Of a stretch of DNA of 64,000 nucleotides, positions 11,701-48,825 are shown in pieces. Positions within the stretch are counted from its first letter, which is position 1. Every line of letters begins with the position of its first letter. The notes under the pieces are model-generated. The model was not told the DNA's origin. It did not search any database and worked only from the letters and a program-made list of their open reading frames with translations. The stretch comes from Haplodiscus bocki (lineage: Eukaryota), in assembly GCA_965655095.1 (NCBI GenBank), contig OZ296649.1, forward strand, positions 29,202,001 through 29,266,000, read 5' to 3'. Both the position numbers and the translations under genes were made by a program.

Positions 11701-12496
11701 CAAAACAGAAACTTTCCAAAACGACGTTGAGTACGTTCCAAAAATGTCTTTTTAAGCTCTGGTGGGCTTGTTTCTTTGGTTATAACTAAAAAGCTGTTTT
11801 GAGAACTTCCTCTGATCTCTCTACTTGAAACAATACGTGTTTCTTGTTCAAATGCAGGGTCAAGTTTTGGCTGGGCTGGTTATCAGAGGCTACATTTGGT
11901 ACTTTGGTTTTTTTTTTACGTCGTGTGTTTGACATCTCATGCCATGCCAAATAAAAAACAGTCCATTCCTTGGAAACGTGGTCTTTGTCGTTTTGGAAAT
12001 GTACAATCGTTTTGATGGTTTCCGTACAAACCTTTTGGAAAAGGTTGGCCGATGCCACCAAAACGAAAACACAAACTTTCTTCTAAATTGACGTTTAGGC
12101 AGTCCAAAAGTATCGCTTTGATCTGTGCTCGGCTTGTTTCTCTCTTGTGAGAAGTTCGAGAGATCAATCCTCGTGAAGTAATACCTGTTGTGGTTGTGAT
12201 ATTAATTGTTTCTTCTATTTCAGCAACGTCAATTCCCTGCAGAACTTGAGAAGTGGCCTTGGTTAGTGTGTCTGAAGTTTTTTGGACAGAAAGACTTGAG
12301 AAAAAACTTTTTTTAATATTGATGCTTTTTTATCGTTTTTTTGTTGAAAAAAAGTTTTTTCTTCTGTTTTTGAGAAAAATCTAATTTTTACCGAAGAGGG
12401 ATGAGATCTGAAATTCCAGAAAATGTGAGATCTAAACTTTCCTGCAGCAACTCACGAAAAAGGAATAAGATCTAGGTTTTGGTGAGGAATAGGCAA
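8788..12496 (+). repeat. Segmental duplication, copy B
   Basis: Near-identical to 1-3707. Differences include caaataca/caattaca, ttcaagcgg/ttcaggcgg and a 3-bp insertion at ~10770. Confidence 0.97.
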
Positions 12497-20731: not shown

Positions 20732-21202
20732 TTTTAACACAAATAGATTTTTTGAAAATTTTCAACGTTTTGCTGCCTCTAAACAACGACCTTTTTCACA
20801 AAGCGTAACGACGGAGGGAAAGAATTTGCTATGGATGCTAGTAATGAAAAATTGCCACCGGTTGCCGCAGAAATTAAGCGGTTTATGACAAAGTGAATGC
20901 ACCTTGCGTTATGTAATCTGTTTACAACGTGTAGTCCAATCGGTGCCTTCCAAAGTGATTATAATTGTATTTATAATCCACCTTTTGCCCCTTTTTGAAA
21001 ATAAATAAAATAGAAATGTGTGCGAACTGAAAAAGGCAGGTTTGACGAATAACAAACCAAAAAATGTTACGTAATAACGGCTTCAAACGATTTTTTGGGA
21101 TTTGTATTGAGCACCGGCACCTCTGTAGGTATTCAATTGCGGATTGTTTGTAGATATTTTTGGTATAAAATGGTATAGCAGGAAAAAAATATTTCTAATT
21201 AC

Positions 21203-26599: not shown

Positions 26600-28980
26600 A
26601 ACTCATGTCGAGAGCTTTTGAAGAAAGATTCGACTTCGGTTGCCAGTCAGTTTTTTGAAGTTTTCATTCCTGAGTACCCATCTGAAGAATAGAATATTGC
26701 GTTCATTGGGTTTTGTATATTTTGGTTTTGCTTTTAATTTTCACAATTAAGCAGATGAAACTGGATATCAAATTTTAGTAATATAAACATAAAGACAAAA
26801 TAACTTGGCGAATTTATTTTTAAAAAAAACAAGATGAATGAGGTGGAGAGAAAAGTGATTATGTCAGAAAAACAATAGCTTTGTTTAAAAGAAAAATTGT
26901 TCTCTGCTTTTACTACAGAGTCGGCATCTAAAACAAAAAATACTGACTCAAATTCAATACTGCGACCAAAAAAATTAAAACTGATTATTGAAATTTCTCG
27001 AATTTTAAACAAAAACCTCTAACCTTACCTAAAATTAAATAGCGAAACAAATGAGATTTTCAGATTCAACAAATAAACGATATGGAAAGGAGTAGAATAT
27101 CTCGGACAATCCGTGTAACAGAAATAACCTGAAAAAAAAAGAACCCACAAAAACTTTTTGTAGCCCAATCCAATGTCAAAACTTGTTTCGGGGCTAAAAG
27201 TTTAACAAAAAAAAACAAGGCTTTAAAGGTATTGATGAAGACCACTGAAAAAAACTGAAAAAAATGAAGTAAATTAAATAGAGGCAATGATGAAGGTTGC
27301 ATCAGAAAATAAAACTGTAGGAGAGAAACAATTCGATTTTTAAGTGTTTTTAAAACCCAATCTTTACCAACACAAGCTTTGAGATGGGAATAACTAGTAG
27401 GAAGGTTACCAGCTTTTTAAAAAAATTAATTTAATGGGAGATGAGATTTTACAGGTTTCAACCGGAAACAACCTAATGAAAAAGCTGGAGGTGACGAGAA
27501 ATTGTCGAGAGAAACTGTAGCCAAACAACCGAAATAGTGACATAAAAAGAGCTAGCTTTTTCTAAGAGTAAGGAAAAATCGTTTAGCAGAATCAAGAATT
27601 GTAGAAGATAGTTTTTTATGTATTTGATTTTTGATAATTTTGTTAGAAGTGAACTCTATTACAGTGTATCTGGAAAAGATAAACTGCAACACAAAAACTT
27701 AGTCAATTGAAACCGACTGTAGGTAAAATAGCAGAGCAATTACAAAAATTAATGAAACATTTTCGAGAAAAAAACTTTTATGATGAATTAAATAACGAAC
27801 TAGAGAAGACACTTTTGAACAAAGCAAACGGTTCACTAAATTTTACTGTCAGTTAATTCTTGGAAATTTTTTATACGAGTTTGAATAACAACATAAGACT
27901 GGAAATTATTTGGCTTTTAGACTATTCTGTTAGAAGAATGGAGGACTATTATAATAAAGACGTAGTCTTCATGAGTTTTAAATTTTTCATTAACAGAAGA
28001 GGAGCAAAATTAGAAACAGAAAAAGTTGATCGCTAAAGGCACTAAAACGTTTGAAGAGGTTTTCAATTAAGACAGAATGAAAAAAAAACAAGACAACTTA
28101 AAATCTGGAAACAATGTAAATACTGAATAAATTAGGATTTAAAATTGTCATAAACGTGAGGGATTGAAAATTTACGACAAGCAGTCGAAGTGGTAGTAAA
28201 ATTACACACGGGGTGACATAGAGAAGTGAAAACATTTTTGCTTCTAACGGATGCCCACCTCCAACAGGAATAACAGAATTTAATACTAAAAGAAAAAAGA
28301 AAATGTGTTTTATTTGAAAATAAAACTCAACGAAAGGGACAGTTTTTAAAACGGTTGTTGTTGATGCATTTATTACTTGACAAAAAACTTGGTAAAAGTT
28401 TTAAAGTCTGCGGCATTAACTTTCTATCATGGTACGTAATGGCAAAAAGAAAAATACTACTTGCTAGCAGTTGGAAAATATAAACCTAATAAAAGAAAGG
28501 GCGACACAAAAAGACGCGATCCGTCTCTGAATGGCAAAAGAAACTACTTCTCCTGATAGTAGGCACCGTATTAGGAAAAATTCTCGAGAAGGGTTTGAAG
28601 ATGCAAAAAAAACTTGGTTGAAGAAATATAGGACAGATGAGTATTAAAAAAATGCGAAGAGTTACTAATTTTGGTTGACACACTCATTGAAGAGTCAACC
28701 ACACCACAAGATAATTTAGAATATATATTAATAATTGGGATACTTCTTCAGATAGTACCAATTAGAGTTAGATTAGGAAAAATGGATTTTGGGAGTCACT
28801 AATTTAGAAAAATTTAACATTCTTTTCATTGAAAAAGAGAAAAAGATGTACATTTCGAACTTTCTCACATGCTTTTTGGGATGACATTACTACAACCAAC
28901 AAAATAGATTACATAATTGCCGGAAACGCCGCTAGAAAAAAAAAGAAAGCAATTAGGAACGCGGAAAAAAAATAAACAAT
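26600..28980 (+). mobile_element. Left portion of a decayed Polinton/adintovirus-like endogenous viral element
   Basis: Very AT-rich. 28678-28820 encodes DTLIEESTTPQDNLEYIL and EKWILGVTNLE, paralogous to the start of the penton-like gene at 52070. The left boundary is uncertain. Confidence 0.45.
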
Positions 28981-31338
28981 TGTCGCAGAGCATGTGTAGT
29001 TAAGAGAGAGAGCTAGAGATTGAAATTGGAAATAGTATATGGTTCTAATTTTCTCTCTCGCTTAGAGCGGTGTGTGACTAAACGCCATTAAGGCGGCTGC
29101 TTTCACACTTCAATTGTTTTGTTAATCAACAGAACAAGTCTCTAGAGATTTATCTCTCTATTTCCGTTGCCTTGCTAGCTCCGCGAACAAAGATTGCGTA
29201 AGTTCAATAGCATGGACTTCATGAGCGATGAAAGGATAATAGAAATGAAAATATTCATTTATTCAGTCAGCCGAGGCAATCCAATAAGTTCAAGTAAAAA
29301 TGAAAGACAAACATCGGAAATTGGAGACTGAGTCACGTCTCAGTGCAAAAATTGAAGGTGGAGGAAAGAGGGGACGTCAGTATCTATTCTTTTTTGCGTA
29401 CAGCAGTAGTCTCTTTCAAAAACATAAAAATTCTCTACATCCAACAAATTATTCTCTCACAGCAATTTTATCCCCTATTTGTAAATATTCCTGAAACTCG
29501 TGAGCTCAGAAGTAACGTTTCAAAAGTAACAACCTTTTCGGCAATTGAGGACAAAAAATGATCGAAGTTAGAATGCTGACAATTTTAAAAAAGAAATCTA
29601 GATATAATATCATAGATTATAAACTTTTACAAAAACATCGACAAAAATGAAATTCATCCAAAATGCAAATAAATTAAAGAATCCCAAAAAAAAACAAAAT
29701 GTACGTTAATCTCTAAAAAACTCCCAGCTAATGTTGTCTGGGACCTATTCGACACAAGGTAGAGTAATAATGACAAATTCTTTTCTTGTTTGGGCTAGGA
29801 AGGAGATTTTGTTTCTCCAACTTTTCCAGCACTATTTTCAAGGTTGGGTTCAGTTTTTGGTAATTTTATTTTTAGTTGTTTATGTTATATCATATAAAAA
29901 ACGTTATCTTTTAGTATACACTCAGTACTTGCATTGGCATAGTAACTGGTTCAAGCAGCTTAGTTTTCTGGAATTTTCCAAACCGTGAATAAATCACCGG
30001 GTTTATTGGCGAGGTTTGATTTGTTTCAAGTTTTGTCAAATGCTGATGTAAAGAGCTCGCTTTCTAGCGGCAACCCGGTCATGTTCTCTGAGTCCCTTTT
30101 TTCCAACCGAGATTTTTGTCTAGCGGATTTTATGGATGGGATTTTTTAGAATATTGTGAATGATCATAGAGATATACTCATTCCGAATTAGAATATTCTT
30201 TAACTAACGTATACCGTTGAGGGAGTTGGGTGATCTGCGCGTAGCTCTGGGACTCTCCTCTTGTGAATCTGACTTGCGAAGAAATTGAAAAGGAAGTTTA
30301 GAATCAATGCAAGGAATGGAATTGTTTGAATGTTGCAAAAGAGACGGTTTCTGCGTACTTAATCCGTATCCCGGAATTTAGAATAAATTCTAAATACCAC
30401 GGAAACAGACGAGGTGAGATTTGATCTATGTAACGTCAACTCTCTCTTCCTAGGGACTTCGTAGGGGTCGTGTTGTTCAAGATCCACTCATGCTTCAGAA
30501 ACGGAGCTTGTCAGCGGAATCCGCATACGCTAATGCCGAAGCAAGCGTTAGTGGACACTGATTAGACTCCAGCGGCAAGAGTATAGAATAAAAAAAATTG
30601 TGCAAATTAAGATTCACTCTTGTTGCAGAACCGAAGTTCATCCACGGAATCATCACACGATAATACCGAAGCTAGCGTTAGTGGACACCGTTTAGACTCC
30701 GGAGGCAAGAGTATGCAATTGGTAAGCAGAGAAGAGGGAATTTTTCTGAGTCAGGAAGAAAATATGACTTAGAATGTTTTTGCGAGATTGGAAAGAATTT
30801 GCGGCTAAGACAGAATTTGGAATTGTCTTCGAATATTTTTACAGAATTGGAGTTGGAATTAGAAAGTTTTAGTCCGAAAAGAAGAGACAAGAGGAATTGG
30901 ACTTACAAAATTTTTGTACAAAAGGCAAATGGAGAAGGGGAGTTGGACTTAAAATAATATGTCCAATTAAAAAAGGGAGAAGAAAACTAAAGTAAAGCAA
31001 GTCAGAACAGGAGTAAGGAGTCCCATCCGCTATACGGGGAAGCGAATAATGATCGAGTCCGTTTCCCAGATCGACCCCAAAAGAACAGCATGCTGCCGTT
31101 TCATGCAACCAATAGAAAAGAAGCTTGTACCAGCCATGGATTGGCAGCTGGCGCCAATAGAAAAATAGCTCCCGTTAGAATTTTTTTATAAAAATTATTT
31201 GTCCATTACCAATGGTTTCCCTATTCCATCAGCTTTCATAAGCTTTTTATATCCTGCATCAGCTCCTCAAAAGGTTAGTTTTAATTAATTAATCATGTTT
31301 AAATTATTTAACGTTTAAGCGTTATGTGTAACGCGATA
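28981..31338 (-). repeat. 3' LTR (2358 bp)
   Basis: tgtcgcagagcatgtgtagtt...gtaacgcgata aligns end to end with 46460-48825. Confidence 0.95.
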
Positions 31339-31350
31339 ACTCACCCCGCT
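31339..31350 (-). promoter_or_regulatory. Putative polypurine tract (AGCGGGGTGAGT)
   Basis: G-rich stretch immediately 5' of the 3' LTR on the minus strand; short and imperfect. Confidence 0.45.
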
Positions 31351-31379
31351 GAAAGGGAAGTGAAAATGATTGAGGGGCT

Positions 31380-32744
31380 CTATGGAAATGGGAAAAGGAG
31401 GGAAGTTTGGATGTGAGATTTTAGCACAGGAGGTTCGGAAAATTTGATCTTATAAAACTCGCACCAGCAATTAGAAAACTTCCAGTTTCGCTAAAGAGTT
31501 TAGAGTGAGGAACAAAGTTGTTGATGATGGTTGCTGCAACTGTTGTTTTTGTTGACATTGTGGGCTTCTTGTAGGCCAGGTCTTGATCAGGCTGAATTGA
31601 TTTCGTCCTTGTATTCAGCGGGTCCAGTTGATCACGGATAGCAATGTGGATGATCTTCGAGAAGGGCCATTTATTAGATAGTCGTAGTCACCAGGGAAGA
31701 GGGTGAATAAAATTGATGCACATTGGCTAGTAGCGGGTCCAATAACATAAGGGTAGAATTTGATGAAGAAATTGTATCCATGATGGTGAATCCTGAAGAT
31801 AGGACTACAAAAACTTGTGGTAGGTTCAATGAGGGGATCAGATGATGGTCGGGCCACTTTTGCAGAGTCGAATACAAACTTCACTGAGGAAGTTTCGAAA
31901 TTATAGCAACTGAATTGCCAGGTTCAAGCTGGCGAATTTTATCATATAAAAGTATTGCGAATGGATCCCCGCAGTGATGGATGTGTAGGTTGATATTTCA
32001 TCGGCAAACAATTTTTCCAGTTTGAAAATCCTTGATGTGAGGTTCTCTACCGTAGTTGAAGGAGCTTCCTGCGTGTTGGGTGTGGGCTGGAAATCGGCGT
32101 CTGCAGATTTGTTTGTTTTCGTTCTGGGTGGTCCCACAGCGCTCACCGGGTTAGAACGACGAAGTTCAGGTTCACCAGGGCCGGGAAGTGGGAAAGCAGA
32201 TGAAGTAGGGTTAAGGATAGGGTTAGGGCTAGGTTTAGGATTAGATAAAGGACTGGTACCGGAGTTTTCAACGGCAAAATCCTTGTTGGAGATTGTTTCA
32301 ACCGGGGAGAAGAGCAAGTAGCGCAACAAGGCAAAGTCATTTTGCAGTTGAAGGACAAGGAGTAGTAATGTCTGTCTGTCTGTCTAGATGTTCTGCCTTC
32401 AAGTGTTGGTTAAACTGTTGGATGGTTTTGTGAAAAGCCTGTAGACAATTCGGCTGATGTTGGATAGATGAAGACGAAAGAGCTGAAGATCCAGGAGTTA
32501 GTTGATGAGCTGCTGCATCCGGTTTAGACTGAGTTGTCGGCAGGAGAAGGACGAGGAGGAAATTGCCGTCAGTGATGTAGTGGTTAGTAGAAGGAGCATG
32601 AGAGGGAATGGTTTATGGAGGCATTCCGCAAATTAATTGAGCCAAGAGGAGACTCAGTGTAGTAGAGTTGCACAGCGAAAAAGGTGGGTCAGATGAAAAT
32701 TGATAATTAGGGAGGAAAGCTGGTGCAAGAGGTTTAAGCGACAT
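31380..32744 (-). pseudogene. TRAF-like protein: Pro/Ser-rich N-terminus, coiled coil and MATH (TRAF-C) domain, no RING or zinc fingers
   Basis: Translation across frameshifts: VENLTSRIFKLEKLF...LYDKIRQLEPGNSVAIISKLP/VKFVFDSAK...SFCSPIFRIHHHGYNFFIKFYPYVIGPATSQCASILFTLFPGDYDYL/WPFSKIIHIAIRDQLDP...IQPDQDLAYKKPT...NFVPHSKL...FLIAGASFI. This follows the TRAF MATH pattern (LIWKI, S.PF...GYK, G.YD.LL.WPF, DQ, F.KP). Confidence 0.85.
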
Positions 32745-33313
32745 TAACGGGGAAGTGCGGTGCTTGCCTGTGGTGCTACAAGCAATCGTTGAGAGGGGAG
32801 AGATGTGCTTTGAATTGTGTATTCTTGACGTTTGCTATCCCAAAACATTATTTCCCATTTGCAGAACACTGGCTTGAGACAGTATTGTAAGTCTTGATTA
32901 AACCGGGGTCGTTTGGTTCTGCGTGCGTGATTAGTATAATATTCACGGCGATGTTGACGTCCAAGAATAGAATGATCGGGCTGGAGTTTGAGGTAAATGG
33001 GGCGAGAAAGAAGGGGTCGAACGTCAGAAAGAAGTGAGCCAAATGGAGGAAGTGCTTTTGTAATTCTAGACTGATCGTTTTCAGGAATGGAAATTGAGAA
33101 CTGCAATCCAGTTGAGGGAGAAAGAGCGAGGTTTGGGATTAAATTGGTGGGGTTGTTAGTAGATCGTAGAGGTGAGGCAGGTGTCTCGTCAAGCGAAGCT
33201 GGGTTAGAGGGTATTCTCCAGGGAGACGAGATAGGAGATAGAAAAGTGACGACAGAGTTAAAACGAAGGTCCAAACCCGAAGGCGTAAGGGGTCGGAGAG
33301 GACTGAAAGACAA
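32744..33313 (-). CDS. Accessory ORF, 189 aa, Pro/Ser-rich N-half and basic C-half, unknown function
   Basis: Uninterrupted frame (TTG start in this copy) between env and the TRAF-like gene; its TAA overlaps the next ATG. Confidence 0.55.
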   Translation of the reverse strand: MSFSPLRPLTPSGLDLRFNSVVTFLSPISSPWRIPSNPASLDETPASPLRSTNNPTNLIPNLALSPSTGLQFSISIPENDQSRITKALPPFGSLLSDVRPLLSRPIYLKLQPDHSILGRQHRREYYTNHARRTKRPRFNQDLQYCLKPVFCKWEIMFWDSKRQEYTIQSTSLPSQRLLVAPQASTALPR

Positions 33314-33360
33314 TAGTCACAAGCAGGAAACATTGATTGTAATTGGGCCTAAAAAAAGAA

Positions 33361-35554
33361 TTAAGACAAATTTAAACAGGGGAAATTGGTGTCACGTGTC
33401 ACGACTTGGTTAAATTGAGCCGGACTCACAACTGGATAAATATGTTCCTCTTTTTTCTTAATATCATCTCTGATATCATGTAATTCTTCCTCATTACAAA
33501 AAAGTTTTTCTCTCTTCTTCCACCGCGGCGAGTGTAGGCTCGCGTGGATCATACATTGAAGTCAAAACTGACATGAGAAAAATGTTACATGAAGCGCTTA
33601 GAAGGGTCTTACGAACCCGAGTGATGCGCCAGTCACTTTAGTTATCTGTAAGTGGCGTATTACCATAACCACAACATCTATTATAAGTTTGAAGAATAAA
33701 AACACGGAGAAGTAGATTCCGCAGTGTTCAGAAACATATGCAACTGGTCCAAATGTATCCATGAACCTATCTTTGAAATAGCCAGGTGAGATCATGTTGT
33801 CTACATAGAAATTTGTTCGAGGAGCATAATAAGGAAAACTGTCCGGGTTCTTGATGTTGTTTGAAAAGACAATGAGTTTTTGCGTAAACTTTTTCAAAGC
33901 ATTTCAGGAGGCAGCACTGGTCAAGATACTGTCCCAAAAATCACTGAGTTCACTTCTAGTGTACATTCCAGCATCTTGAGATCCAGGGAAAGAATGAACT
34001 AACACTGGTGAAACGTCTTTGGGCCCGAACACAGCGGGTCTATCCTGATGTACAATGCCAGGTGTTAGTGTATACCATGAGTCTTTTTGATCCATGTCAA
34101 ATTGAAAGAGATTTTTGATCCGGTCAGTAAAATTTTGTAGGTTAGCCGTCGGGTGTGTTTGCCGTGTAATAGGGTCGACAAATTGAATCTGGCTTTCGTA
34201 GAGGGCCGGGATCCGATCGTAACACCGGTTCGTCGTATGAAGTGGTGAAGGAACTGGTGGGCAGTGATACAACCAAGCTTCCACCAGTTTCCAGAAACAT
34301 TGCCCGGTTTTCGGTGAGCATATATCCTTCGAGGCGTGGGTTTTCAAGATATAGCATCAAAATAGTAAGAATCTGTGTTCGTTCTTGCTCACCATGATTT
34401 TTCAAGAGTTGTATCTCAGAAGTTTAAAGTAATCGTGGGCTCTGGAAGAAGAGATTGTCCAATTTTGTTCCCATGTGCTTCTCATAGTCCATATTGAGCT
34501 ACATGTTTTCATCGCTTGTTTTTTGAAATGTGTGTTTCGGATCATATGGATACAGTTGGGCCAATCCGTTGTTCTTAGTGGGTGCTATACACTGTAAGAG
34601 TTAGGTGACACCATTCCGTTCATTACCAAAATTCCTTCCGGATCTCAGGTAGAAGCCTCCACTAATGATTGCCACATAGAGTGAATCCTAATTAATAAGA
34701 TAAATATCCGTAGGCTTTCCACAATGTTTTTGAGGATTGTTTTAAACTTCAAATACAATTCTTTTTGTTGAATCTGGTCCACTGATGATGTAAACTTTTG
34801 TTCCTTGTTTCACCATGTTACCCTCTTCGGTTCGGAGCTTTGATAACACACAGTTATCAGGGTAGTCCGATATATAGGCGTAGGGGTCCAATGAAGTTGT
34901 TTCACAACCTAAATCTTCCAGTGCACATGGCAGTACTTGAGTATAGTCGGATAAGATCTTCCCAGTTGACATTCTGACTTTTAGTGTTGTTCGTTGCATA
35001 TGAGGGAGGAAGATATCACGGGTAATCCAACCACGCGAGGTGCAGTGATTTCTCTTAGTGTCGGTCGTAGAACCGTCGGTGATTACAATGGGATTCTTGG
35101 TATCATATTCAACTCCCAAAAACTGATCGGCCAGATAGATCATTTTTCCTTTCGCCAGAGATCGGCATTGTTCTGGTGAGACCACTAGGTCAACAGTAAT
35201 TCCAGGTACAGTGTGATCGATGCTGCTGTGGTCGTTATGTCCCCAGTGCCACTTCTCGCGTTGATGTTGTATTCCACACTTTGTTGTGTTAAGCTTTTTT
35301 CGGAAGTGCTCAGTGTAGAGAATGATTTTCGTTTGACTAATTTCCAATTCCTCCGGTGTAATGTGGCATTGTCGTACCTGGTTGAGAGCATAGAGAGTGT
35401 TTTCTGTCATTGCGCCGCAGTCAAACTGAGACACTTTAAGATTCTTGGCAACCTGCTCTGCGTCTAGAACTAAAATCTGAACAATCTCGGAACAAAACAC
35501 GAGGACTTGAAAGAAAAATAGTGTCATCGCCGAACTTTTCAGCTGAAGCTCCAT
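33361..35554 (-). pseudogene. env: Envelope glycoprotein, chuvirus-G-like (class III fusogen-type), disrupted
   Basis: Hydrophobic signal-like N-terminus; VSQFDC...YALNQVRQC, KC.IQHQRE.WH.GHNDHS, SPEQC, LPCALEDLGC, HCGKP, QERTQIL...NP, LYHCPPV...CYDRIP...FVDPITR, SWY, GMYT..EL; C-terminal TM GIYFSVFLFFKLIIDVVVMVI and a charged tail. Spread over ORFs 34742..35554, 34142..34405, 33904..34347, 33598..33897 and 33361..33552. Confidence 0.8.
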
Positions 35555-35857
35555 CTCTTGTATTTTACTTCAGAGGGAATAACTATTGAAAGAAAAGAAA
35601 ATAGCGCCTTCACGGGGTTTCCCTGTGGAAGTTCACTCTATTTTTTCAGAGGAATAGCTATTGACAAATGCCGTAATATCAAACTGGCGCTTTGTGGGCA
35701 CTAACACAAAGTAGGAGCAAATATTTTACAGTAGTAGCTCCACTACGAATAAAACGCTGTCGAGATTTTTATAAAGGGTGCCGGAAGAAAACCGGTATCA
35801 CCAAAAAAGTGCCAATTTGAATGTGTAAAGATAACTCAGCTCAACCATTGGATTTCT

Positions 35858-36202
35858 TCAATCGTAGTTTGTTTTATTGCGTTTTGGGTTTGTTGCCTGA
35901 TCTTCAGAGGTTGAAGATTGACACTGATGTATGAGTCCTTTAACTGAGTATCTGGTCAGAGGATGAGTGGTTTTGAAGTGCGGAAACTTCGTAAATTCTT
36001 GTAGGGCTGAGAGGAGACTAGTTAGCTCTTCATTTCCTGGTTGAATGGGATTTTTCCAGTTTCCAGGTTGCAGTTGCCTCAGACTGTGGGCTGTTATGAC
36101 AATTGGGTCAGATATTTCGCTCCACTCGATTTTCGTGATCTCCAAATGATTACTCGTAGCAGAGTGCTGCCAGAGGCACTTGTTGTTAAGTTCAAATGTC
36201 AT
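35858..36202 (-). CDS. Accessory ORF (~114 aa, MTFELNNKCLWQH...), unknown function
   Basis: ATG at 36202 overlaps the end of the upstream ORF (ATGACATTTGA); open to the stop at 35858. Confidence 0.4.
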   Translation of the reverse strand: MTFELNNKCLWQHSATSNHLEITKIEWSEISDPIVITAHSLRQLQPGNWKNPIQPGNEELTSLLSALQEFTKFPHFKTTHPLTRYSVKGLIHQCQSSTSEDQATNPKRNKTNYD

Positions 36203-36575
36203 ATAGATCAACAAGAGCGTGCAGGATATTGATGTGTGACACCTCGTTAAATCTCCCAAGCTTCTTGTCCATATAATCCAGAAGATTGTCCAAGCTTCGG
36301 TTTTCCCTCTTATCCAGCGTCCTGGAAATTTTAAGAGTCACAAAGTGGTTGGCGAACTCTTCTGTTTGGACTGTTATGGGAATAAGGATTATCGCGAGTA
36401 GAGTCTCAGTAATCCGCAATCTGACTTGTAAGGGACTTCCGTCCGGTATCCAGAAAATTGTAGTTATAAAGTGTTTTCCTTCCAAGGAAAGTGGTGTCCA
36501 CTTGCAGCGAATGTCAGCTCTCGAATGTGTCTTGTTGTCACCAAGTCAAATTAAAGTGATTTCTATTGGGTTCAT
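36192..36575 (-). pseudogene. Accessory ORF (MNPIEITLI*LGDNK...DLYDI), one internal stop
   Basis: ATG directly follows a TGA; in frame with track ORF 36192..36485; globular-looking composition. Confidence 0.45.
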
Positions 36576-37699: not shown

Positions 37700-38500
37700 C
37701 TATCAAGAGCCGTTAGAGGTGGAAGTTGCGGCGCAGGAGTCCCCGGAGTCTTCGGATCCCTCTCCTGGGTCCCCGTCGCCTGTGTTCCAGTTACCGGTGG
37801 GCGACGCGTCTAATTTCATGGGTTCTTACACAGCCGACGAAATTGATGATATTGAGTTTTGGGCTAACCGGTAGCGAGACCTAAGGGGGTGTCAGGTTCC
37901 TTTGCTGAGGAACCCGACATTTCGGACAACCTAAAGTTGTTCTTAAAATACACAATGGGGCCTCAATGGCAGTATAAGTTGACTCATTCTGCCGGAGAAG
38001 TCCTGATTTTCCAACTTCGGGTGATTTTCCAACCTGAGAGGGTACGAATAATTAACACACTTTAACCGTCGGCAGTGGCTCCGGTTGTTCTCCGCGTGGA
38101 CAATTTCTGAGGGCCGTGAACAGCTGGGGTTGGTGGCCATCTCCGGCGGTTTTCAAGAAATTTAGGGCCTCTGGGCCTTCTTCTGGGTCGCTGGTCGTTC
38201 TCGGCCGGCGGCCTTTTTCTACTGTCTTATGCCCGTCTTTGTGTTAAAAATCTTGGAGTTTCATAAAAAGTAAAAAAGATATAAAGGTCTTTGAGAAAAG
38301 TAGGTTGAATCGTCAGAGTAGAATGCAGAGATTGAGGAGTCGATCGATCTGACAGACTCGTCATCGGAGCTTTCGTATGCAATACAATCAAAGATGTGGG
38401 AAAGAAATCGAGTAGGGAGATAGGAAAGCACTTCTTCAAGAAATGGATAGTTAGTCGTGAGAGAATAATGGCATAGAAGTTGATATAAACTGGCCATGGC
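37700..38500 (-). pseudogene. Decayed accessory ORF region just downstream of pol
   Basis: ATG-initiated ORF MASLYQLLCHYSL...SSDDESVRS (38261..38497), followed by a GC-rich, partly open region. Confidence 0.3.
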
Positions 38501-38797: not shown

Positions 38798-40695
38798 TTA
38801 GAGTTTATAGCCTTGTCTAGTGCGGGTTTGAAGCACAGACTGTGGGTCAGGATGATCAGGTTGGGAACGATTGTATTTAGGTTCCTTGTTTTTTGATTCT
38901 CGGCTATTAGTAATGAATTGTTGTATTCGGGTTAATGGTCCACTAGGAGGTTCCGTTCGTGAAGTGGATGAGATGAGATGAGGCTGCGAATTATCAGGAT
39001 TTATTGGCATTGTTGGTGACAGAACATGAGGAGAATTTACTCCAGAGTCACTGCTAGTATTATTGACCCGTTTCTGTGGAAGTGTACTCGGGGCTGTACG
39101 AAGAGGTTCAATAGGAAATGGGAGCGAGTTTTCCATGCAAGGTTGTTGGGAGTTGCTTGGCTTCCAGATTCGCTGCTCCATGAATCGTTCCTAAAAATCG
39201 TCATGACGTCGGTCCATCAGCACAAATTCTCCGATCATCGGAGGTAGTGTTTCTTCTTTAGGATAGTACTCAACTAAATGATTTCGATGCACTGTTTTGA
39301 GAATTGTAGGATCTTTGTCATCTTACGTTTGATAAGTTGTGTTAGTTACTCGTTTTGTTACTGTAAAGGGTCCGAGACGTCTCTGTTGAAATTTTTGACT
39401 CTTAGAAAGATCTTGGCGAACTTTTTGTCCTATCTCTAATAGTTGTACCAACTTGAATCGTTTTTTGTAGGCATACGATCTAGCTGTTTGTTCTCGACAT
39501 CCTTCGAAAGTAGCGGAATAGATGCTTTTGAAATCAATTTCTCGTTCCAGGAGTGCGTGTGAAAGTTGTGGTCGAAGAAGATTGTCTAATAGTTGATTCT
39601 TTAGGTTGTTCTCACCATGTGAATAAAATAGCAGGTCTCTGCAGAATTTAGAGCAACAATGTTTAAGTTTATTGCAGTAAAGTCCAAGTTTCAAAGACAT
39701 AGGGATCTGAGGTTTTGTACCTAAAACTATTTCGTAAGGTGTTTTCCCAGTAGTGTAGTTAACGCTTGAGTTGTGGGCAAAAGCGAATTTCGGTGCTAAA
39801 GAAGACCAAGTGTTTCCAGCGTCGTTCAAGAACTCCCGCCAATAACGGGCGATGTGTTCGTTCTGGGTTCCAATTTTGCCATCAGTCCAAGGCGAGTGTG
39901 CTGTTCTAGGTCGCAGAGTGATTCCCATTTCTTTTGTCCAGTTAATGAATTCGGTATTGATGAAAGCCGCACCTCGGTCATGCACAATAGATTGAGGAAT
40001 TCCGAATGAACGGATCCATTTCTCAACAGCAGAGATAATAACCTGAGCACCAGTGTTAGTAACTGGGTATACCAATAAAAAGAGAAAAAAAGCATCAATA
40101 ATCAAGAGACAGTGAAGATTCCGGTTACTTGGGGGCTGAAGAGGTCCCTTGTGATCAATATGAGTTGTTCGGAACGGGACTGTCTCGTGTTGCCATTCTT
40201 CCAGTGGTATTTCGTTCCTGTGTTTAGGTTTTGGTTTGTTGTTTTGGCTAGTCAGACAATCAGCAGTGAGTGTACATATCCAGTTGAACATACCAGGCCA
40301 GTAGTAGAATCGTTTTGCATTGTTGTAGGTTTTTCAAGCTCCCATGTGTCCGTCCATTTCGTTGTAGTGTCCAAGTCTGAAACGCGCTAGGAAGAGTGAT
40401 AAAGGTAAGCAAATTTGCAGGTTTTCATCATCTAGTTTTTCAGTAGGTCCGTTGTAACATAGAAGTTGTGCTTCTTCTTCAATTAGAAGTCAGTCTAATT
40501 TTTGGCAGTATCGAAGTAAGCTTTTGGACTGTTGTATTTCGGGGACTTTGTTATGGGTGAAATTCCTTTACGTAGCCAGGATCGAGCAGTACCAAGAACT
40601 GGGTCTTTGATTTGTTCGGCCAGGATCGTGGAGACATCAAGATCAACTGCTTTAGAAACATCATCCAGTTTAGCAATTAAGGATTTAGTATCCAA
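38798..40695 (-). pseudogene. Integrase (HHCC zinc domain, DDE core, GPY/F module, Pro/Ser-rich tail)
   Basis: EQIKDPVL; HYNEMDGHMG...YYWPGMF...CLTS; HIDHKGP, VHDRGAAF, WTDGKIG (catalytic E lost in this copy); LGPFTVTKRV; VHRNHL. Confidence 0.93.
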
Positions 40696-41289
40696 ATGCG
40701 GCGCTTCCGTAGCTGTCGGCGTTTTCTAAACTAGGGAAGCATCAATTTTTCCTAAGACAGCGTCATGAGCTGCTTTGGCTTTGCACAGCCTGTAGTGGTC
40801 GGCATGGGTGTTTATTTCACATATTAGGTTGCCTTCGTCATCGTTGATGATCGCAGCAGCGTCCTCGGATGGTTCATCCAGTACCTCATCGCTTTCGTTA
40901 GCACTCAGCGAGTTGATCAAACTGTATGTTGGTTCAGAGTCTTCTGCCAAGCTCAAAGACAGCGTTGAGGGTAGGCATAGGCCTCGGAATTGTTTGATTG
41001 TTCGGTCCAGTGCAAAACAATCGGTTGCGGATTGTATCGTCGTTGTAGGAAATTCGTTACTAAGGCTATTCAACGTGAAATTCTCACCGCTATTGTGCAA
41101 TCGGAGAACCTTATTGTCGTTGTTTTGTTGGCAATGGATTGGGTAGAAGTCGTTGCAAGTATTGTTAGGATTATCATCGTTTTGAATTCGATAGGTAACT
41201 GGAGATCCATGTTCATCGTAGAACTCTATGTCCCTAGGTACCTTCTTGTGTTGTAACTGATGTTTTCGGTATTCTTCTACTGTTACGTT

Positions 41290-41920
41290 TCGATTTAGGA
41301 TATCCGGGAAAGCAAGATTTGATCTCGGAGTCCAGATATTTTTAAGTTTTTGGAATTTTGTTATGATTACTTGATACCTGAAAACCGATGTGATAGTTGT
41401 CCTTTTGTCCCCATAGATAAAAAATCGGTTTGTGATCACAATAGAGGTATATTGGAAAAGGAAATCCAATGATTTAGTGTTCATATGTTTGTAAAGCTGA
41501 AACTATTCCACATAGTTCTCTATGGAGAGAAGACATCTTCTGTTCGGCTTTGTCGAAAATTCTTGAGATGAAGGAGAATATTCGTTTTCCCTCAGGAAAT
41601 TGTTGAATTAGGATAAAACCTGTTCCAGTATTTGACGAGTCCACATGAATGTGAAAAGTATAATCAGTTGAAAGTACAGCAAGGATCGTATCTTCACTAA
41701 TTCTGTCTTTGATTGATTGGAATAGTTTTTCATAATCCTGTGTCCAGTGGAAAGGAGTCGTGTCCTTAATCAAGTAGTAGAAGGGCTGACTGTCCACATG
41801 AAGGTTCCTAATATCGCAACTGCAGAATCAGAGGCCTCCTAAAATTTTCATAACATCTCGTTGACTTTCTGGTTATTTGAGTTTTTTCAAGTCTTTCACT
41901 CGTTTTGCATTAGGTTGGAT
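41290..41920 (-). pseudogene. RT connection and Ty3/Gypsy-type RNase H
   Basis: FHWTQD...FHIHVDSSNTGTGFILIQ...AEQKMSSLHRELCGIV...NLAFPDILNR. Confidence 0.9.
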
Positions 41921-42720
41921 TCAGTCTGGGGATATAACGTGACCAAGAAATTCACCTTTCTTTAGAAAAAATAATGTTTTGTCAGGGGCTGCCTTGAGAC
42001 CTGCTTTCCTAAGAAGTGTATCGTACTCGTTGATGACCGTGAACATCTCATTCTTGTTTTGTGACTGCATTATTGAATCGTCAATGTAGGTGATTGCTTG
42101 TTTCCTCCCGATGAGAGTGTCAAAAAGTATTATCATTAGTCGGCTGAAGAAATTTGGGAGCCCGCACAAGCCATAAAATCCACGTGTGTAGGTGCACTGT
42201 TTTCCAGCGATTATGGAACTAGTTAGTTTTTGTGTTTCCGGGCTCAACGGGACTTGATGATAGTCACAAGAGAGATCACTTACCGAGAAGACCTTGCGAT
42301 TGACCCTAGTCATGATCATCAGCGCTGGTTCCAAGGGCCAGGAGTAATTTGTAAGATCAGTCACTGAATTACGATATCTTTTGTCAATCACTAACTTCAC
42401 ATAGTCCGTTTTAGGCATTAGGATAATCATTGACAAATAACGATCCCATCTCGTCGTCGTCACCCATCTCACGAATGATATCTGCGTCCTTTGTTTGTGT
42501 GAGTAGTTTTTTTTTCTTTCAAGTGTAAGGGAACTTTGTTAGGTCGTTGTCGTTTCAGTTCAACGCTAGGTGTCAGTGTGACGTGGAACTTCTGGCGGGT
42601 TTTGCCCACATCAAACATATGTTGAGAATAAACATCCCGCGCGTCGACTAACATATCAATCAGGTGAATCATTTCTTCATCTGTAAAGTCTGAGTACTGA
42701 AAATCGAAATCTTTAACGTA
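41921..42720 (-). pseudogene. Reverse transcriptase
   Basis: KLVID, DLSCDYHQVPL, GFYGLCGLPNFF, YIDD (42077-42088), FLGHVIS. Confidence 0.96.
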
Positions 42721-42959
42721 GTTTATGAGTTCTTTTGGCTGATATTGAAGATAGTGATCAATGAGTCGGTTGTTGTGATCTTTCTCACGGAGGACTGGAA
42801 ATTACTTGTCACAGGTTGGTTGGCAGGACTTGGAAACCTTAGTGAAGTCTGTTTTTAACTCACGGTTTTCTAGGAGGAATTCTTCACTGTGTTGTTCTAT
42901 CTCGTCGTCAGCACAAAACTCAGCGTCTCCTTCAGCGGACAGCGCGTGGACTCTATTTT

Positions 42960-43400
42960 CCTCAAGAGTGTATACTACAATTTGCACGTCAGCGTTAGCG
43001 AAGATATCTCGGAGTAGTTTCACAACTTCTTGCTAGTTCATTTGATATAGTGCACAACCAAGTTTGGTTATAGCAAGAGTAAAACCGCCATTCGTACTTG
43101 CATGAATCTTCAATGCTTCCAATGTTTTAGACAGTGTCGATAGGTTGGGTTTATCGCAAAAACTTTCTTTAGTCACCAGATTGTAGATATAACGCTTTCC
43201 TAGTGAATCCCAGAAAAGGAAGACTTGTCCCATGAACAAATTTTGCTTTCGGGCAAGTTGATCTGAGACCAGGAATTCTCTAGGGTAGAAAATCAGCAAA
43301 ACTTTCACTCATTCGAGCAACCGCAGATATGCAATGTCCAATTGAATTAGGTTGTTGGAGGATCGAACTTTCTGTACCATAGATAATCTGCAGAAATTCG
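42960..43400 (-). pseudogene. TARG1/OARD1(C6orf130)-like macrodomain (ADP-ribose glycohydrolase) within pol
   Basis: SIGHCISAVARMS..FA / RYIYNLVTK..KPNLSTLSKTLEALKIH..NG..LAITKLGCALYQMN*QEV..IFANADVQIVVYTL is collinear with OARD1 as recalled (SLAHCISEDCRMG / RYIYYLITK..KPTYENLQKSLEAMKSH..LSMPRIGCGLDRLQWENV..VFEATDIKITVYTL). Confidence 0.9.
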
Positions 43401-43798
43401 TCACCGCTCTGAGCTGGAACTGTCGGGTGTAAGAGAAAACAGTCATTAAACCGTTCATCAGTAGAGATGATAGCGTTCGTTAACTCGTAAGGACTTCGTA
43501 TTTGGTACTTGGGCTCATCTTGATTAACCACTTCCAGAGAAGAGAATCCAATCCGTCCCTTTGGTAATGTAATTTGGTGGTTCTCATCGTTTTCCATCAG
43601 TATCGGAAGATAACGTTCATATCGGGTGCATAAAGTGTTTATGAAGGATGGGCCAGTAGCCACAGCATGTCGATTTGGTTGAAAAGTAGAACCTGGTGGG
43701 AAGTGTGTATGAGTGTCTGCGGGACAGTACTTCCAACAACGGGCACTTTTAGCGTCAATACACATCGTATAGGGGGTTCTAACTGTCACAATTTGTGA

Positions 43799-44281
43799 TT
43801 AGTGAGGATGGGACTTTTTTTGATGAAACCTGCCATAGAGGATTGACTTGGGAGGATTCTTTATTTCAATTCCACGCAGATCAAAAAGAATTCCAGAAAC
43901 TTGTTTTTGACAGAAGTCCATGCCAAGAAGATTCTGAGTTCTCATCTCAGTGATCCATACTGTTAGTGGGAAGATAATTTGTCCATCTGGATCATAACTA
44001 AAAGTGATAGTTGCATAGCCAATCATCGGAACTGTTTGTCCCGAGTATGTCGTTGTTACTTTGGTACTTTTTTGTATAGTAATTGGGAGCTGTAACTGGC
44101 AGATTTCCCAAAACGTTCGGTAAATGATGATTGAGCAAGAAGCTCCTGTATCTAACGTGAATTCGATCTCTAAACCACTATCTTTTTGAATGTCTCCGGT
44201 GGCGAAGTAAGAGACATTGAGGCTAAGCCTCGAGTTTTGAGATTTATCGGTGTTCGAGTTCGGAGACCTTAGTAGTTTAAC
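43799..44281 (-). pseudogene. Aspartic protease (start of pol)
   Basis: FTLDTGASCSII active site and NLLGMDF motif. Confidence 0.95.
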
Positions 44282-45700
44282 AGGCAAAGGTCTGACACTT
44301 CGTTAATGGTATCATCGGTTGTGGTGAAGCGAACCACATTAGATGATGTCTGATTTTTGTTCTGCGGAAACTTTTATTCATAGAGCGTAAAACTAGTCGT
44401 AGATCGATTGTCAGATCTGCGGAAGGCAGAGTAGTTATGTTGATCACTTCTTGGTTGGCGATAGGAGTTATTTTGTGAGAAGTCTCTTCTTTGAGCCGAT
44501 GAAGAACGAGAAACATTTCCATTGTTTCGCCAGTTCCCATTAGATTTGTTGAAAAACTCATTTCGAGATCGATTTCCCTGATTTCTATTGAATGTTTGGT
44601 TTCGGCGTTGATCAGATGATCTTCTGTTGTTCGGGTGATTCTTCTCATTTTCGAAGCTGGGCCTTGGAGGGAAATTTCGATAAGATGTGGGAAAATTCCT
44701 TGTGGGTCCATCATTATTGTAATTTTGATTTCTTTTTTGGAAATCCTGGCCTCTAATCCATTGCTCTTCTCCATGATCTGGTCCCCCTTTTTTGTTGTAA
44801 TCCTGAGTAAACGTGACTTTCCTTTCGGTAGATCTTTCGTTTTCAGTTCGTTTTAATTCTTCGTCCCGTATCTTCTTGCGGCACCAACTTGGGGTATGTC
44901 CGTTTGTGCGGCAGTAATTGCAAAATCGTGTTGCATTCTGTCTTCCTTTTTGGTTTGGGTCTACTGTTCGAGAATTTTCTTCTACAGCAATGACTGGGTG
45001 TTATTATAGTTGCAATCGTAGATTCTTCATCTTTTGACCCAAGGTGGCCATCTGAGCCCTGGTTTGTTCTTCGTCATTTAAAAAGTTGGAAGGAACTTGG
45101 AATGATACATCTTTTTGTATCATCCTGGTAGAAAGTCATTCCACGTAACAATCGGGTTTTCCATCAGATATTCTTATGCTTTTTGCGGGAGGTACCTAGG
45201 TCGTAATCCTTTTAGCGAGTAGTCGCTGCATCTTTGTCTTAATTGTCGTCCTTGAGCTGCTCTTTCAGCACCATGATCTGCTGCGGCACTTCCCTCCATA
45301 TCGTATCGCCACCTTTTATCCACGGTTCTTCTAATGCGGTGTAGGAAGTTCCGAATTTCTTCTCCATCTCCTCTAATACAATGGTCCACTTCCATTCGGT
45401 ATCGGAATTTGTTTCGTCCATCTGAAAATCTAGTGATGAAATTTGTTCAAACATTCTCCCAGGTTGTTGCGTTGGTATTATTGTCCTCGTACCACTCAGC
45501 GGCTGGTCCTCGGAGCAAAGAGGAAAACAGCGCTTTCTTCCTGAAAGTGTAGTTTGCCAGTTCACCAGCATCTGCAGGTGCGTCTCCAAGAACAAAGTTG
45601 ATTCAAGTAATTGGATGAAAGATTCGGCGTCCTGATTGGGATCTGTGCCAGAAAATTTGTCGATGGCTAGATCAAGATAAGCAAGATGAGTATTAGCCAT
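44269..45700 (-). pseudogene. gag: Gag (capsid, CCHC nucleocapsid, N/Q/R-rich tail)
   Basis: KFSGTDPNQDAESFI, LRGPAAEWY, TWENV..FITRF capsid motifs; zinc knuckle CNYCRTNGHTPSWC at 44881-44922. Confidence 0.93.
44275..44281 (-). promoter_or_regulatory. Putative -1 ribosomal frameshift site G_UUA_AAC at the gag/pol overlap
   Basis: gag frame ends ...CTG TTA AAC TAC TAA; the pol frame CCT GTT AAA CTA is -1 relative to it. Confidence 0.7.
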
Positions 45701-45809
45701 TGTAAAGGTTATATCTTCAAAATAAGGAGTCTAGTAGTTCTCCAAGAATATGAAGTTGATTGGAGTTCAAGGGGGGTTCAGGAAAATTTTCGTTATCGTC
45801 TAGGGCCTC

Positions 45810-46058: not shown

Positions 46059-46440
46059 TTACAGTTTATTCAAATTTAACATTAATATCCAGATTGAAAA
46101 ATGAATGATACTAGTAACGATCACAGTTTTAAGACTCAGTTTCCAGAGGTTCGGTTGTGGACAATTTTTTCCAATTCAAAAACTCCTAGAAGATAGGTAG
46201 GTGTTAGAAGTTAGGCTATAATCGCAATTAAGAAAAAATATAGCGCAAGGATCAGGTCAGTTCTGATTTCGAAAGGTTTATACTGGAGAAACTCGGGAAT
46301 TGCTGGATGAGAGTTTTCTAATTAGAGCAACTGTTATAATTCCCAATGATATGAGAAGATTAAACGTTACGAAAGGGAATATGAAGAAAAGCTTTTACGC
46401 CAAGATATAATCAACTGATCGGTCAAAAAGATAAATATGC

Positions 46441-46456
46441 TTCACTGGTCGCACCA
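46441..46456 (-). promoter_or_regulatory. Primer binding site TGGTGCGACCAGTGAA
   Basis: Begins with TGG 3 nt after the CA end of the 5' LTR; complementary to a tRNA ending ...GGUCGCACCA; isoacceptor not assigned. Confidence 0.8.
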
Positions 46457-46459
46457 GTT

Positions 46460-48825
46460 TGTTGCAATGCATGTGTAGTTAAGAGAGAGAGCTAGAGATT
46501 GAGATTGGAAATAGTATTTGGTTCTAAATTTCTCTCTCGCGTAGAGTGGTGTGTGACTAAACGCCATTAAGGCGGCTGCTTTCGCACTTCAATTGTTTTG
46601 TTAATCAACAGAACAAAGAACAAGTCTCTAGAAATTTATCTCTCTATGTCCGTTGCCTTGCTAGCTCCGCGAACAAAGATTGCGTAAGTTCAATAGCATG
46701 GACTTCAGGAGCGATGAAAGGATAATAGGAAATGAAATTATTCAATTATTCAGTCAGCCGAAGAAATCCAATAAGTTCAAGTAAAAATGAAAGAGAAACA
46801 GCGCAATTTGGAAACTGAGTCACGTCTCAGTGCAAAAATTGAAGGTGGAGGAAAGAGGGGACGTCAGTATCTATTCTTTTTTGCGTACAGCAGTAGTCTC
46901 TTTCAAAAACATAAAAATTCTCTAGATCCAACAAATTATTCTCTCACAGCAATTTTATCCCCTTTTTGTAACTATTCCTGAAACTCGTCAGCTTAAAAAA
47001 ACTTTTTCAAAAATAACAGTCTTAACAGCAATTGAGGACAAAAGATGATCGATATTAGAATGGTGACATTTTTAAAATAGAAATCTAGAAATAATATCAT
47101 AGATGAAAATTTTTTACAAAAAACTTCGACATAGATGAAATCCATCCAAAATGCCAATAAATTAAAGAATCCCAAAAAAAACAAAATGTACGTTAATCTC
47201 TAAAAAACTCCCAGTTAATGTTGTCTGGGACCTATTCGACACAAGGTAGAGTAATATTGACAAACTCTTTTCTTGTTTGGGCTAGGAAGGAGACTTTGTT
47301 TCGCCAACTTTTCCAGCACTATTTTCAAGGTTGGGTTCAATTTTTGGTAATTTTATTTTTAGTTGTTTATGTTATGTCATATAAAAAAAGTTATCTTTTA
47401 GTATACACTCAGTACTTGCATCAGTACCATAGTAACTGGTTCAAGCAGCTTAGTTTTCCGGAATTTTCCAAACCGTGAATAAATCAGCAGTTTCTTGGCG
47501 AGGTTTTATTTGCTTCAAGTTTTGTCAAATGCTGATGTAAAGAGCTCGCTTTCTAGCGGCAACCCGGTCATGTTCTCTGAGTCCCTTTTTTCCAACCGAG
47601 ATTTTTGTCTAGCGGATTTTATGGATGGGATTTTTTAGAATATTGTGAATGATCATAGAGATATACTCATTCCGAATTAGAATATTCTTTAACTAACGTA
47701 TACCGTTGAGGGAGTTGGGTGATCTGCGCGTAGCTCTGGGACTCTCCTCTTGTGAATCTGACTTGCGAAGAAATTGAAAAGGAAGTTTAGAATCAATGCA
47801 AGGAATGGAATTGTTTGAATGTTGCAAAAGAGACGGTTTCTGCGTACTTAATCCGTATCCCGGAATTTAGAATAAATTCTAAATACCACGGAAACAGACG
47901 AGGTGAGATTTGATCTATGTAACGTCAACTCTCTCTTCCTAGGGACTTCGTAGGGGTCGTGTTGTTCAAGATCCACTCATGCTTCAGAAACGGAGCTTGT
48001 CAGCGGAATCCGCATACGCTAATGCCGAAGCAAGCGTTAGTGGACACTGATTAGACTCCAGCGGCAAGAGTATAGAATAAAAAAAATTGTGCAAATTAAG
48101 ATTCACTCTTGTTGCAGAACCGAAGTTCATCCACGGAATCATCACACGATAATACCGAAGCTAGCGTTAGTGGACACCGTTTAGACTCCGGAGGCAAGAG
48201 TATGCAATTGGTAAGCAGAGAAGAGGGAATTTTTCTGAGTCAGGAAGAAAATGGGACTTAGAATGTTTTTGCGAGATTGGAAAGAATTTGCGGCTAAGAC
48301 AGAATTTGGAATTGTCTTCGAAAATTTTTACAGAATTGGAGTTGGAATTAGAAAGTTTTAGTCCGAAAAGAAGAGACAAGAGGAATTGGACTTACAAAAT
48401 TTTTGTACAAAAGGCAAATGGAGAAGGGGAGTTGGACTTAAAATAATATGTCCAATTAAAAAAGGGAGAAGAAAACTAAAGTAAAGCAAGTCAGAACAGG
48501 AGTAAGGAGTCCCTTCCGCTAATCGGGAAAGCGAATAATGATCAAGTCCGTTTCCCAGATCGACTCCAAAATAACAACATGCTGCCGTTTCATGCAATCA
48601 ATAGGGAAAAAGCTTGTACCAACCATGGTTGGCAGCTGGAGCCAATAGGAAAAAAGCTTCCGTTAGAAGTTTCTTGTAAATATATTTGTGCAACTCCAAT
48701 AGTTACTTAATTCCATCAGCCTTTATATTCTTTTTATATCTTGCATCAGCTCGTCAAAAGGTTAGTTTTAAATGTTTAATCATGTTTCAATTAATTAACG
48801 TTTAAGCGTTATGTGTAACGCGATA
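46460..48825 (-). repeat. 5' LTR (2366 bp)
   Basis: tgttgcaatgcatgtgtagtt...gtaacgcgata; adjacent PBS. Confidence 0.95.

Follow-up and report, generated by a model that had tools for sequence, protein, structure and literature searches.

Env-carrying gypsy elements are widespread; among them are errantiviruses with an HSV/gB-type env (PMC13524379). It is rare for an LTR retrotransposon to carry a host regulatory gene that is kept under selection. In Burro/GYPSM1, giant gypsy-like LTR elements of planarians with an env-like gene, a MATH_TRAF_C domain is known and has been proposed to meddle with host apoptosis or ubiquitination (PMC6431247). A peptide class bearing on the present case is PAM2, a 12-residue pattern (L3-N4-P5-A7-F10-P12) shared by eRF3, Paip2, Tob, PAN3 and ataxin-2, all ligands of the MLLE domain (PMC2854688).

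The window analyzed here, a 64,000-nucleotide stretch of Haplodiscus bocki DNA, contains a 19.8-kb Ty3/gypsy element on the minus strand with a Monjiviricetes-type fusion (env) gene. Self-comparison revealed two LTRs, between which gag, protease, RT, RNase H, integrase and env follow one another on the same strand, all of them broken (Table 1). The protease–RT–RNase H–integrase order together with the LTRs assigns the element to Ty3/gypsy, and a fusion glycoprotein ORF placed after pol (PF24664) makes it an env-carrying one. We take PF24664 to be the gB-type env of published errantiviruses. A target-site duplication of the window copy was sought, and none could be fixed. After env comes an ORF of about 200 residues and then a TRAF-like gene, reading from an ATG at 32744 to a final stop at 31382–31380. 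This stop lies 41 nt from the 3′ LTR, so that the first-pass annotation was right to call the gene the last cistron before that LTR.

Table 1. Features of the element in the window (families A–E are introduced in the text)
Feature	Position	Strand	Basis
5′ LTR (~2.37 kb)	46459..48825	-	94.5% identity to 28980–31338; K2P 0.049
PBS-like sequence, begins TGG, 3 nt after 5′ LTR	46440..46456	-	read from sequence
gag, broken	44272..45703	-	76–83% to gag of a natural family-A copy; family-B gag matches PF03732
pol (protease, RT, RNase H, integrase; Ty3/gypsy order), broken	38801..44311	-	Pfam PF13650, PF00078, PF17919 and PF00665 on window pieces; 74–95% to a natural copy
antisense ORF remnant, common to families A, B and D	37782..38162	+	tblastn E 3e-6 to 6e-9
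pre-env ORF, common to families A, B and D	36195..36575	-	43% to family-B ORF, E 5e-28
env, Monjiviricetes-type fusion glycoprotein, broken	33364..35569	-	PF24664 E 1e-7 and 3e-9, two pieces; 45–55% to 721-aa family-C env
upstream accessory ORF (~200 aa), conserved ~65-aa C-terminal domain	32744..33348	-	present in families A–D; also in TRAF-less E, fused to a coiled coil
TAATG stop-start overlap, upstream ORF/TRAF-like ORF	32742..32746	-	sequence
TRAF-like gene; one stop and five frame changes	31380..32744	-	sequence, Pfam, comparison with natural copies
PAM2-pattern N-terminus	32709..32744	-	window copy fits positions 3, 5, 7, 10 and 12 and departs at position 4; definition PMC2854688
first coiled coil (CC1), related to host motif FPL.N.K..QYLH..Q	32310..32460, approximate	-	sister-copy model helix 92–144; alignment
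second coiled coil (TRAF-N), ends LYDKIRQLE	31923..32050, approximate	-	model helix 228–275
MATH/TRAF-C domain	31440..31905, approximate	-	Pfam, PDB sequence and fold matches
purine-rich tract before 3′ LTR	31339..31352	-	sequence
3′ LTR	28980..31338	-	self-comparison

The window copy of the TRAF-like gene is dead. Its reading frame meets a stop near 32615 and changes near 32380, 31950, 31890, 31670 and 31450, and the lesions fall in the same places against all three natural copies compared. The signatures GY, GDYDYL, KWPF, DQ, KKP and LYDKIRQLE, from which a frameshifted MATH domain and a preceding coiled coil had originally been read, are all present, spread over three different frames. Pfam bears the MATH domain out. 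TRAF-MATH (PF21355) matches two unjoined window pieces, 31615–31923 (E 9.3e-6, profile 2–61) and 31424–31687 (E 5.6e-4, profile 52–114), both slightly below the curated cut-off, and it matches six of six open family-A sister frames at 59–65 bits (cut-off 27.4). The absence of a RING or zinc finger holds as well, with no such Pfam match in the six family-A and three family-B open frames scanned.

In sister copies the intact gene is a single frame of ~455 residues encoding two coiled coils and a TRAF-type MATH domain. An AlphaFold2 model of one natural copy, of low confidence (mean pLDDT 58, pTM 0.39; residues 1–91 under 50), shows long helices at 92–144 and 228–275 followed by a β-sandwich, with a disordered N-terminus and middle linker. 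The modeled helix 228–275, with the first strand starting at 282, would put the TRAF-N coiled coil directly before MATH, and it aligns with host TRAF-N. The best Foldseek matches are TRAF4, TRAF1 and TRAF5 (E 1e-13), the top named viral fold matches are iridovirus TRAFs, and PDB matches by both sequence and fold are TRAF1–6. Thus, the TRAF-N plus MATH part of the initial domain account stands, while the account had omitted the upstream coiled coil, a PAM2-pattern peptide and a stop-start overlap.

Sister copies were sought in the 1.5-Gb assembly. The DNA search listed at least 41 matches (1430 first-look candidates), with 39 of 40 non-self matches at 82–87%. In the protein search, 92 of 114 scored matches (the best 114 of 4770 candidates) are without an internal stop, most of the stop-free frames being about 485–505 codons long; because only the best scorers were taken, this sample is biased to intact copies. 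The predicted presence of the gene in sister copies is thereby confirmed, with many frames open. Reading from the ATG, the ~455-residue frame occurs in 25 of the 48 loci examined in the window element's own family, A, and 21 of the 46 family-A loci with an ATG are broken. Some 23 kb ahead of the window is a further TRAF-like copy of family A (G000:C2:29177568–29178638).

A MATH search (best 150 of 2967 candidates) returned mostly a second family, B, with frames of 433–441 codons. The gene order in a family-B copy is as in A and its LTRs are 99.7–99.9% alike; young family-A copies have LTRs 95–99.5% alike. An env search led to three more families. Family C has a TRAF of ~250 aa in 15/15 loci and a 721-aa env (L110–L124, L148), and family D is represented by one copy (protein record P0174). 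In family E, env is only about 35% identical, no TRAF match was found in 7/7 downstream 8-kb stretches, and the LTR match of 99.4% indicates youth. The TRAFs of the four families A–D are about 30–38% identical. The env tree (midpoint root) sets E apart from A–D and puts A and D together; in the TRAF tree, A joins D, then B. A further diverged TRAF-like type, 33–39% identical to family A (protein records P0185 and P0258), is possibly a fifth TRAF-bearing family judging by its sequence. In this genome the captured gene occupies hundreds of scored sites and probably thousands overall; the four families that carry it have diverged and include young copies.

Several other parts of the element and window deserve description. 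The C-terminal domain of the upstream accessory ORF (also L148:4189–4665 and L128:6692–7777) follows a basic stretch, reads P.F...L.Y.L......W.I..WD..RQE..I.N......QR..V and is found in all five families. ESM Atlas gave weak HSF/ETS winged-helix leads for this ORF (0.79–0.80) and nothing for its family-E version. The antisense ORF between integrase and env (also L131:1901–2569 and L051:9176–9739) has an acidic N-terminus and a conserved C-terminal part, and the ORF just before env, ~160 aa long, is conserved in A, B and D (also L048:7598–8083). Pfam returned no match for the accessory ORF (window piece or family versions scanned), for the B and D versions of the antisense ORF or for the pre-env ORF. 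An insert in pol between protease and RT (window 43036–43308 (-), also in L154) contains …FWDSLGKRYIYNLVTK…TLAITKLGC…, which by eye looks macro-domain-like. Outside the element, a 3.7-kb segment of the window is duplicated at 99.8% identity (1–3707 and 8788–12496), with ~65-nt and AGCGCTG-rich satellites after it, and an 823-aa open frame lies at 18290–20761 (-). This frame, in which PF00418 (E 5.6e-13) identifies a Tau/MAP tubulin-binding repeat, is probably a large host exon.

Where did the TRAF-like gene come from? Two host genes with introns (L043:2794–5412 (-) and L045:2471–4190 (-)) give the best MATH matches in the genome. Their clade has two coiled coils and relatives in other assemblies (P0122–P0135), and the motif of the first coiled coil is common to the two host genes and families B and D. 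In a tree of the second coiled coil (CC2) plus MATH, element families A–D and the intron-bearing host clade are united at 99/99, apart from four other TRAFs, and the phylogeny thus supports the original claim of a captured gene. The tree neither rejects nor establishes a single capture (long branches flagged; p-AU 0.21). In both host genes an intron interrupts MATH; the elements have none there, as would be expected for capture from spliced mRNA, and this is the likely route, as far as gene structure can tell. As for the donor, L043 has a short upstream exon in which the ATG comes after an in-frame stop, at the same position as in two related records. It has at most one zinc-finger remnant (Cys/His, read by eye), for which Pfam gave no support. 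The donor appears to have been RING-less already, though a hidden upstream exon may exist. The missing RING was therefore probably inherited rather than produced by truncation in the element, and its absence is no pointer to an element-made dominant negative.

The most distinctive feature is at the N-terminus. The protein starts with MSLNPLAPAFLP in family A, MTLNPHAPIFKP in family B and MTLNPFAPTFRP in family D, and these peptides agree with PAM2 as defined in the literature at positions 3, 4, 5, 7, 10 and 12 (PMC2854688); beyond them, the A and B N-termini cannot be aligned to each other. PAM2 ligands have a hydrophobic residue at position 3, Asn or Ser at 4, Pro, Val or Thr at 5, Ala at 7, Phe at 10 and Pro at 12. 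With an in-register ATG, the pattern begins at residue 1 in 40 of 46 family-A loci (38 with Pro 12), 19 of 22 family-B loci and the one family-D copy; it does so in 0/20 host-type proteins, and family C is without the motif. These counts, like those for the ATG and the overlap, exclude two duplicates (L024 and L041) and one locus identical to L008 (L023); in family B, three of 27 loci lacked the anchor and were left out. In shuffled frames, the pattern occurred anywhere in 147 of 8800. PAM2 (PF07145) is also the only Pfam match of the 31-residue N-termini (A: E 0.079; B: E 0.017), with 13.1 and 15.3 bits, below the curated cut-off of 20; it gave no match to the family-D N-terminus, and was seen with the short N-termini only, whole-protein scans not reporting it. 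Position 9 in the elements is not the preferred Glu.

The same 5′ end is joined to the preceding ORF. The upstream stop overlaps the TRAF ATG as TAATG or TGATG in 46/46 family-A loci with an ATG (48 examined), and as ATGA in 22/22 family-B loci and in family D; family C has a 2-nt gap and no overlap. Overlaps of this kind are a mark of termination-reinitiation in viruses; among retrotransposons, SART1 reinitiates at UAAUG (PMC10275272). The arrangement suggests that the TRAF-like ORF is likely translated by termination-reinitiation, while expression by splicing or an internal promoter may take its place. The motif is only 12 residues long, and part of the constraint at the 5′ end could come from its overlap with the upstream ORF or from a signal for reinitiation. 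Moreover, since family C thrives without either the PAM2 pattern or the overlap, neither is required.

We next consider selection, estimated from pairwise dN/dS among 25 open family-A frames and 18 family-B frames (L074, of 518 aa, was left out of B). In family A, dN/dS is 0.11 for the PAM2 pattern (residues 1–12), 0.11 for CC1, 0.15 for CC2 and 0.12 for MATH, against 0.42 and 0.52 for the linkers; the corresponding family-B values are 0.04, 0.14, 0.17 and 0.16, against 0.28 and 0.31. Counts of extra amino-acid versus extra synonymous states agree with this pattern, with p about 5e-4 for PAM2 in each family; the p values are approximate, since the copies share ancestry and were chosen for having open frames. 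The contrast between domains and linkers is drawn within the same copies. The TRAF-like gene is under purifying selection. The possibility, allowed for at the outset, that it is neutral passenger DNA might draw on the broken state of the window copy and of the family-A loci counted above, but the lower dN/dS of the domains and the retention of the gene in four families of such divergence speak against it. Barring an alignment artefact, the selection pattern refutes this explanation, which we regard as scarcely credible.

What the first-pass annotation had proposed as function was a decoy that dampens TNFR/TLR–NF-κB or cell-death signaling. The receptor groove does not bear this out for the window family. 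Two groove positions were read: a β3 Arg and a β7 Gly, the latter being, judging by alignment, the probable equivalent of TRAF2 Gly 468. The β3 Arg is replaced by Lys in 24/25 family-A frames and by Gln in family B (17/18); the β7 Gly is replaced by Leu in 24/25 of family A, by Thr, Met, Ile or Lys (mostly Thr or Met) in family B (17/18), and also in family D. Host proteins keep the Arg (11/11) and, in all nine that the pattern read, the Gly. Arg 393 is a peptide contact in TRAF2 (PMC6125299). The receptor-binding hot spot of TRAF1/2/3/5 (Arg393/Tyr395, serine triad, β7 Gly-Cys) is therefore altered in A, B and D at the Arg and/or Gly. The Gly is lost in exactly the PAM2-bearing families; as these form one clade, its loss counts as one event, not three.

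A decoy or dominant-negative TRAF, acting through receptors or host TRAF trimers, has arguments of its own. Both the TRAF-N coiled coil and MATH are under purifying selection in a gene without a RING, the host-like CC1 motif is retained in B and D, and interference could occur through coiled-coil mixing. In Burro, too, MATH_TRAF_C occurs with BIR and BCL2-like domains and is read as meddling with apoptosis (PMC6431247). Set against this are the replaced groove residues, a donor that seems RING-less already and a PAM2 peptide that a decoy leaves unexplained. Furthermore, a search of the genome for Rel-homology and TNF domains was blank, though it also missed PABPC, and the two TIR matches examined were not Toll-receptor-like in the frames read. 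We consider this reading doubtful. By its sequence, family C suits it better, having kept both the β3 Arg and the β7 Gly (15/15 each) and having no PAM2 pattern; among the families, C is the strongest candidate for a genuine receptor decoy.

The conserved PAM2-pattern peptide suggests a partner other than TNFR or TLR. We tentatively favor a role as an MLLE-docking adaptor, in which a captured RING-less TRAF would use its PAM2-pattern peptide to dock on poly(A)-binding protein, at the MLLE domain, and would link mRNPs to further partners. The proposed course of events is as follows. An intron-less, RING-less TRAF with two coiled coils and MATH would have been captured from a spliced host mRNA, and three lineages (A, B and D) would have gained the PAM2-pattern peptide. 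The protein would trimerize like other TRAFs (PMC6125299), and a trimer would display three PAM2 peptides, allowing high-avidity binding of PABP-coated mRNPs. It could thereby bridge mRNPs (the element's own RNA probably among them) and ligands of the coiled coils and the altered MATH groove, host TRAFs being one candidate. Most plausibly, it would favor the polycistronic RNA of the element itself or keep host partners at these mRNPs. Resemblance of the peptide to known ligands makes docking on the MLLE of poly(A)-binding protein likely.

A search for the docking partner in the host brought up a rival to this adaptor. PABPC was not located in the genome: PF00658 led only to UBR5, a degenerate pattern gave 0 matches, and of 53 matches to TIGR01628, none of the six loci read was PABPC-like. 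The only MLLE found is that of a UBR5-type MLLE+HECT region. Just before its MLLE, the host UBR5 has a PAM2-like stretch, LNVNAAPYQP (L165:8139–8849 (+)). It is conceivable that the peptide recruits UBR5, a HECT ligase, by its MLLE as a borrowed E3, so that partners of MATH or the coiled coils, for example host TRAFs, would be ubiquitinated or degraded, which would give a RING-less TRAF a function. PABPC, on the other hand, is generally far more abundant than UBR5, and no substrate is known. PAM2 proteins are bound by the MLLE of UBR5, which targets one of them, Paip2, for degradation, but this binding is weaker than that by the MLLE of PABP (PMC11326040). On balance, recruitment of UBR5, the chief alternative to PABPC as partner, is unlikely.

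The captured domain might instead have been repurposed as a structural part of the particle or RNP, in a trimer that joins PABP on RNA to the env tail or other element proteins during assembly and has no part in signaling. Co-transcription of the gene after env, apparent translational coupling, and groove residues that are changed yet fixed within each family are consistent with such a role. Nevertheless, a search of the env tails of A–D for a ligand of the MATH groove found no canonical PxQxT/PxQE motif, the conserved YP motif of the env tail is also present in TRAF-less family E, and family E is young without any TRAF. A purely structural role is quite improbable.

The adaptor, UBR5 and decoy readings are partly compatible and not fully exclusive. 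A broader formulation covers the first two: a retrotransposon lineage built a PABP/UBR5-docking PAM2–TRAF chimera and remodeled its groove, turning it into a trivalent mRNP- or E3-recruiting adaptor, with families C and E, in the same genome, as would-be relics of earlier stages. We see the case for this as evenly balanced. If the PAM2 peptide works, the target of this retroelement accessory protein is either UBR5 or the poly(A)/translation-termination machinery, and, if true, this would be a link between TRAF scaffolds and mRNPs that we did not find in the literature searched. Families E, C and A/B/D offer a natural series for how a captured gene is repurposed.

How does the element compare with systems already described? 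Burro elements exceed 30 kb, have env in frame between gag and pol, carry MATH within the polyprotein or else in an accessory ORF upstream, and contain BIR, BCL2-like and ankyrin domains (PMC6431247). Here, in contrast, the element is 19.8 kb long with a gag-pol-env order, no BIR, BCL2 or ankyrin Pfam match was found in the element ORFs scanned, and the TRAF, which has its coiled coils and starts with a PAM2 pattern, is a cistron of its own, the last one. With the errantiviruses it shares LTRs, gag-pol-env, a viral fusion glycoprotein and many young copies, and it differs in the extra ORFs around env; in that study, TRAF and MATH are absent from the text and, together with PAM2, from seven supplements (PMC13524379). 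Cellular TRAFs have the same succession of TRAF-N coiled coil and TRAF-C/MATH, and TRAF1 likewise has no RING (PMC6125299), but compared with TRAF1–6 the element protein has no zinc finger, a second, upstream coiled coil, an altered groove and the N-terminal PAM2 pattern. A virus-borne TRAF homologue with coiled coil and MATH is ISKNV ORF111L of a megalocytivirus; it comes from a DNA virus, however, keeps its RING, is near fish TRAFs, binds TRADD and induces apoptosis (PMC3352826). As to PAM2, the element's peptide, recognized here from sequence, differs from those of cellular ligands in starting at residue 1 of a retroelement protein and in being fused to a TRAF. No PAM2–TRAF chimera was found in the literature searched, most subscription papers and Repbase-type entries being outside that search. 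Thus, while a MATH/TRAF domain in a gypsy element was already known, the PAM2-pattern start, the stop-start overlap and the loss of groove residues are new here.
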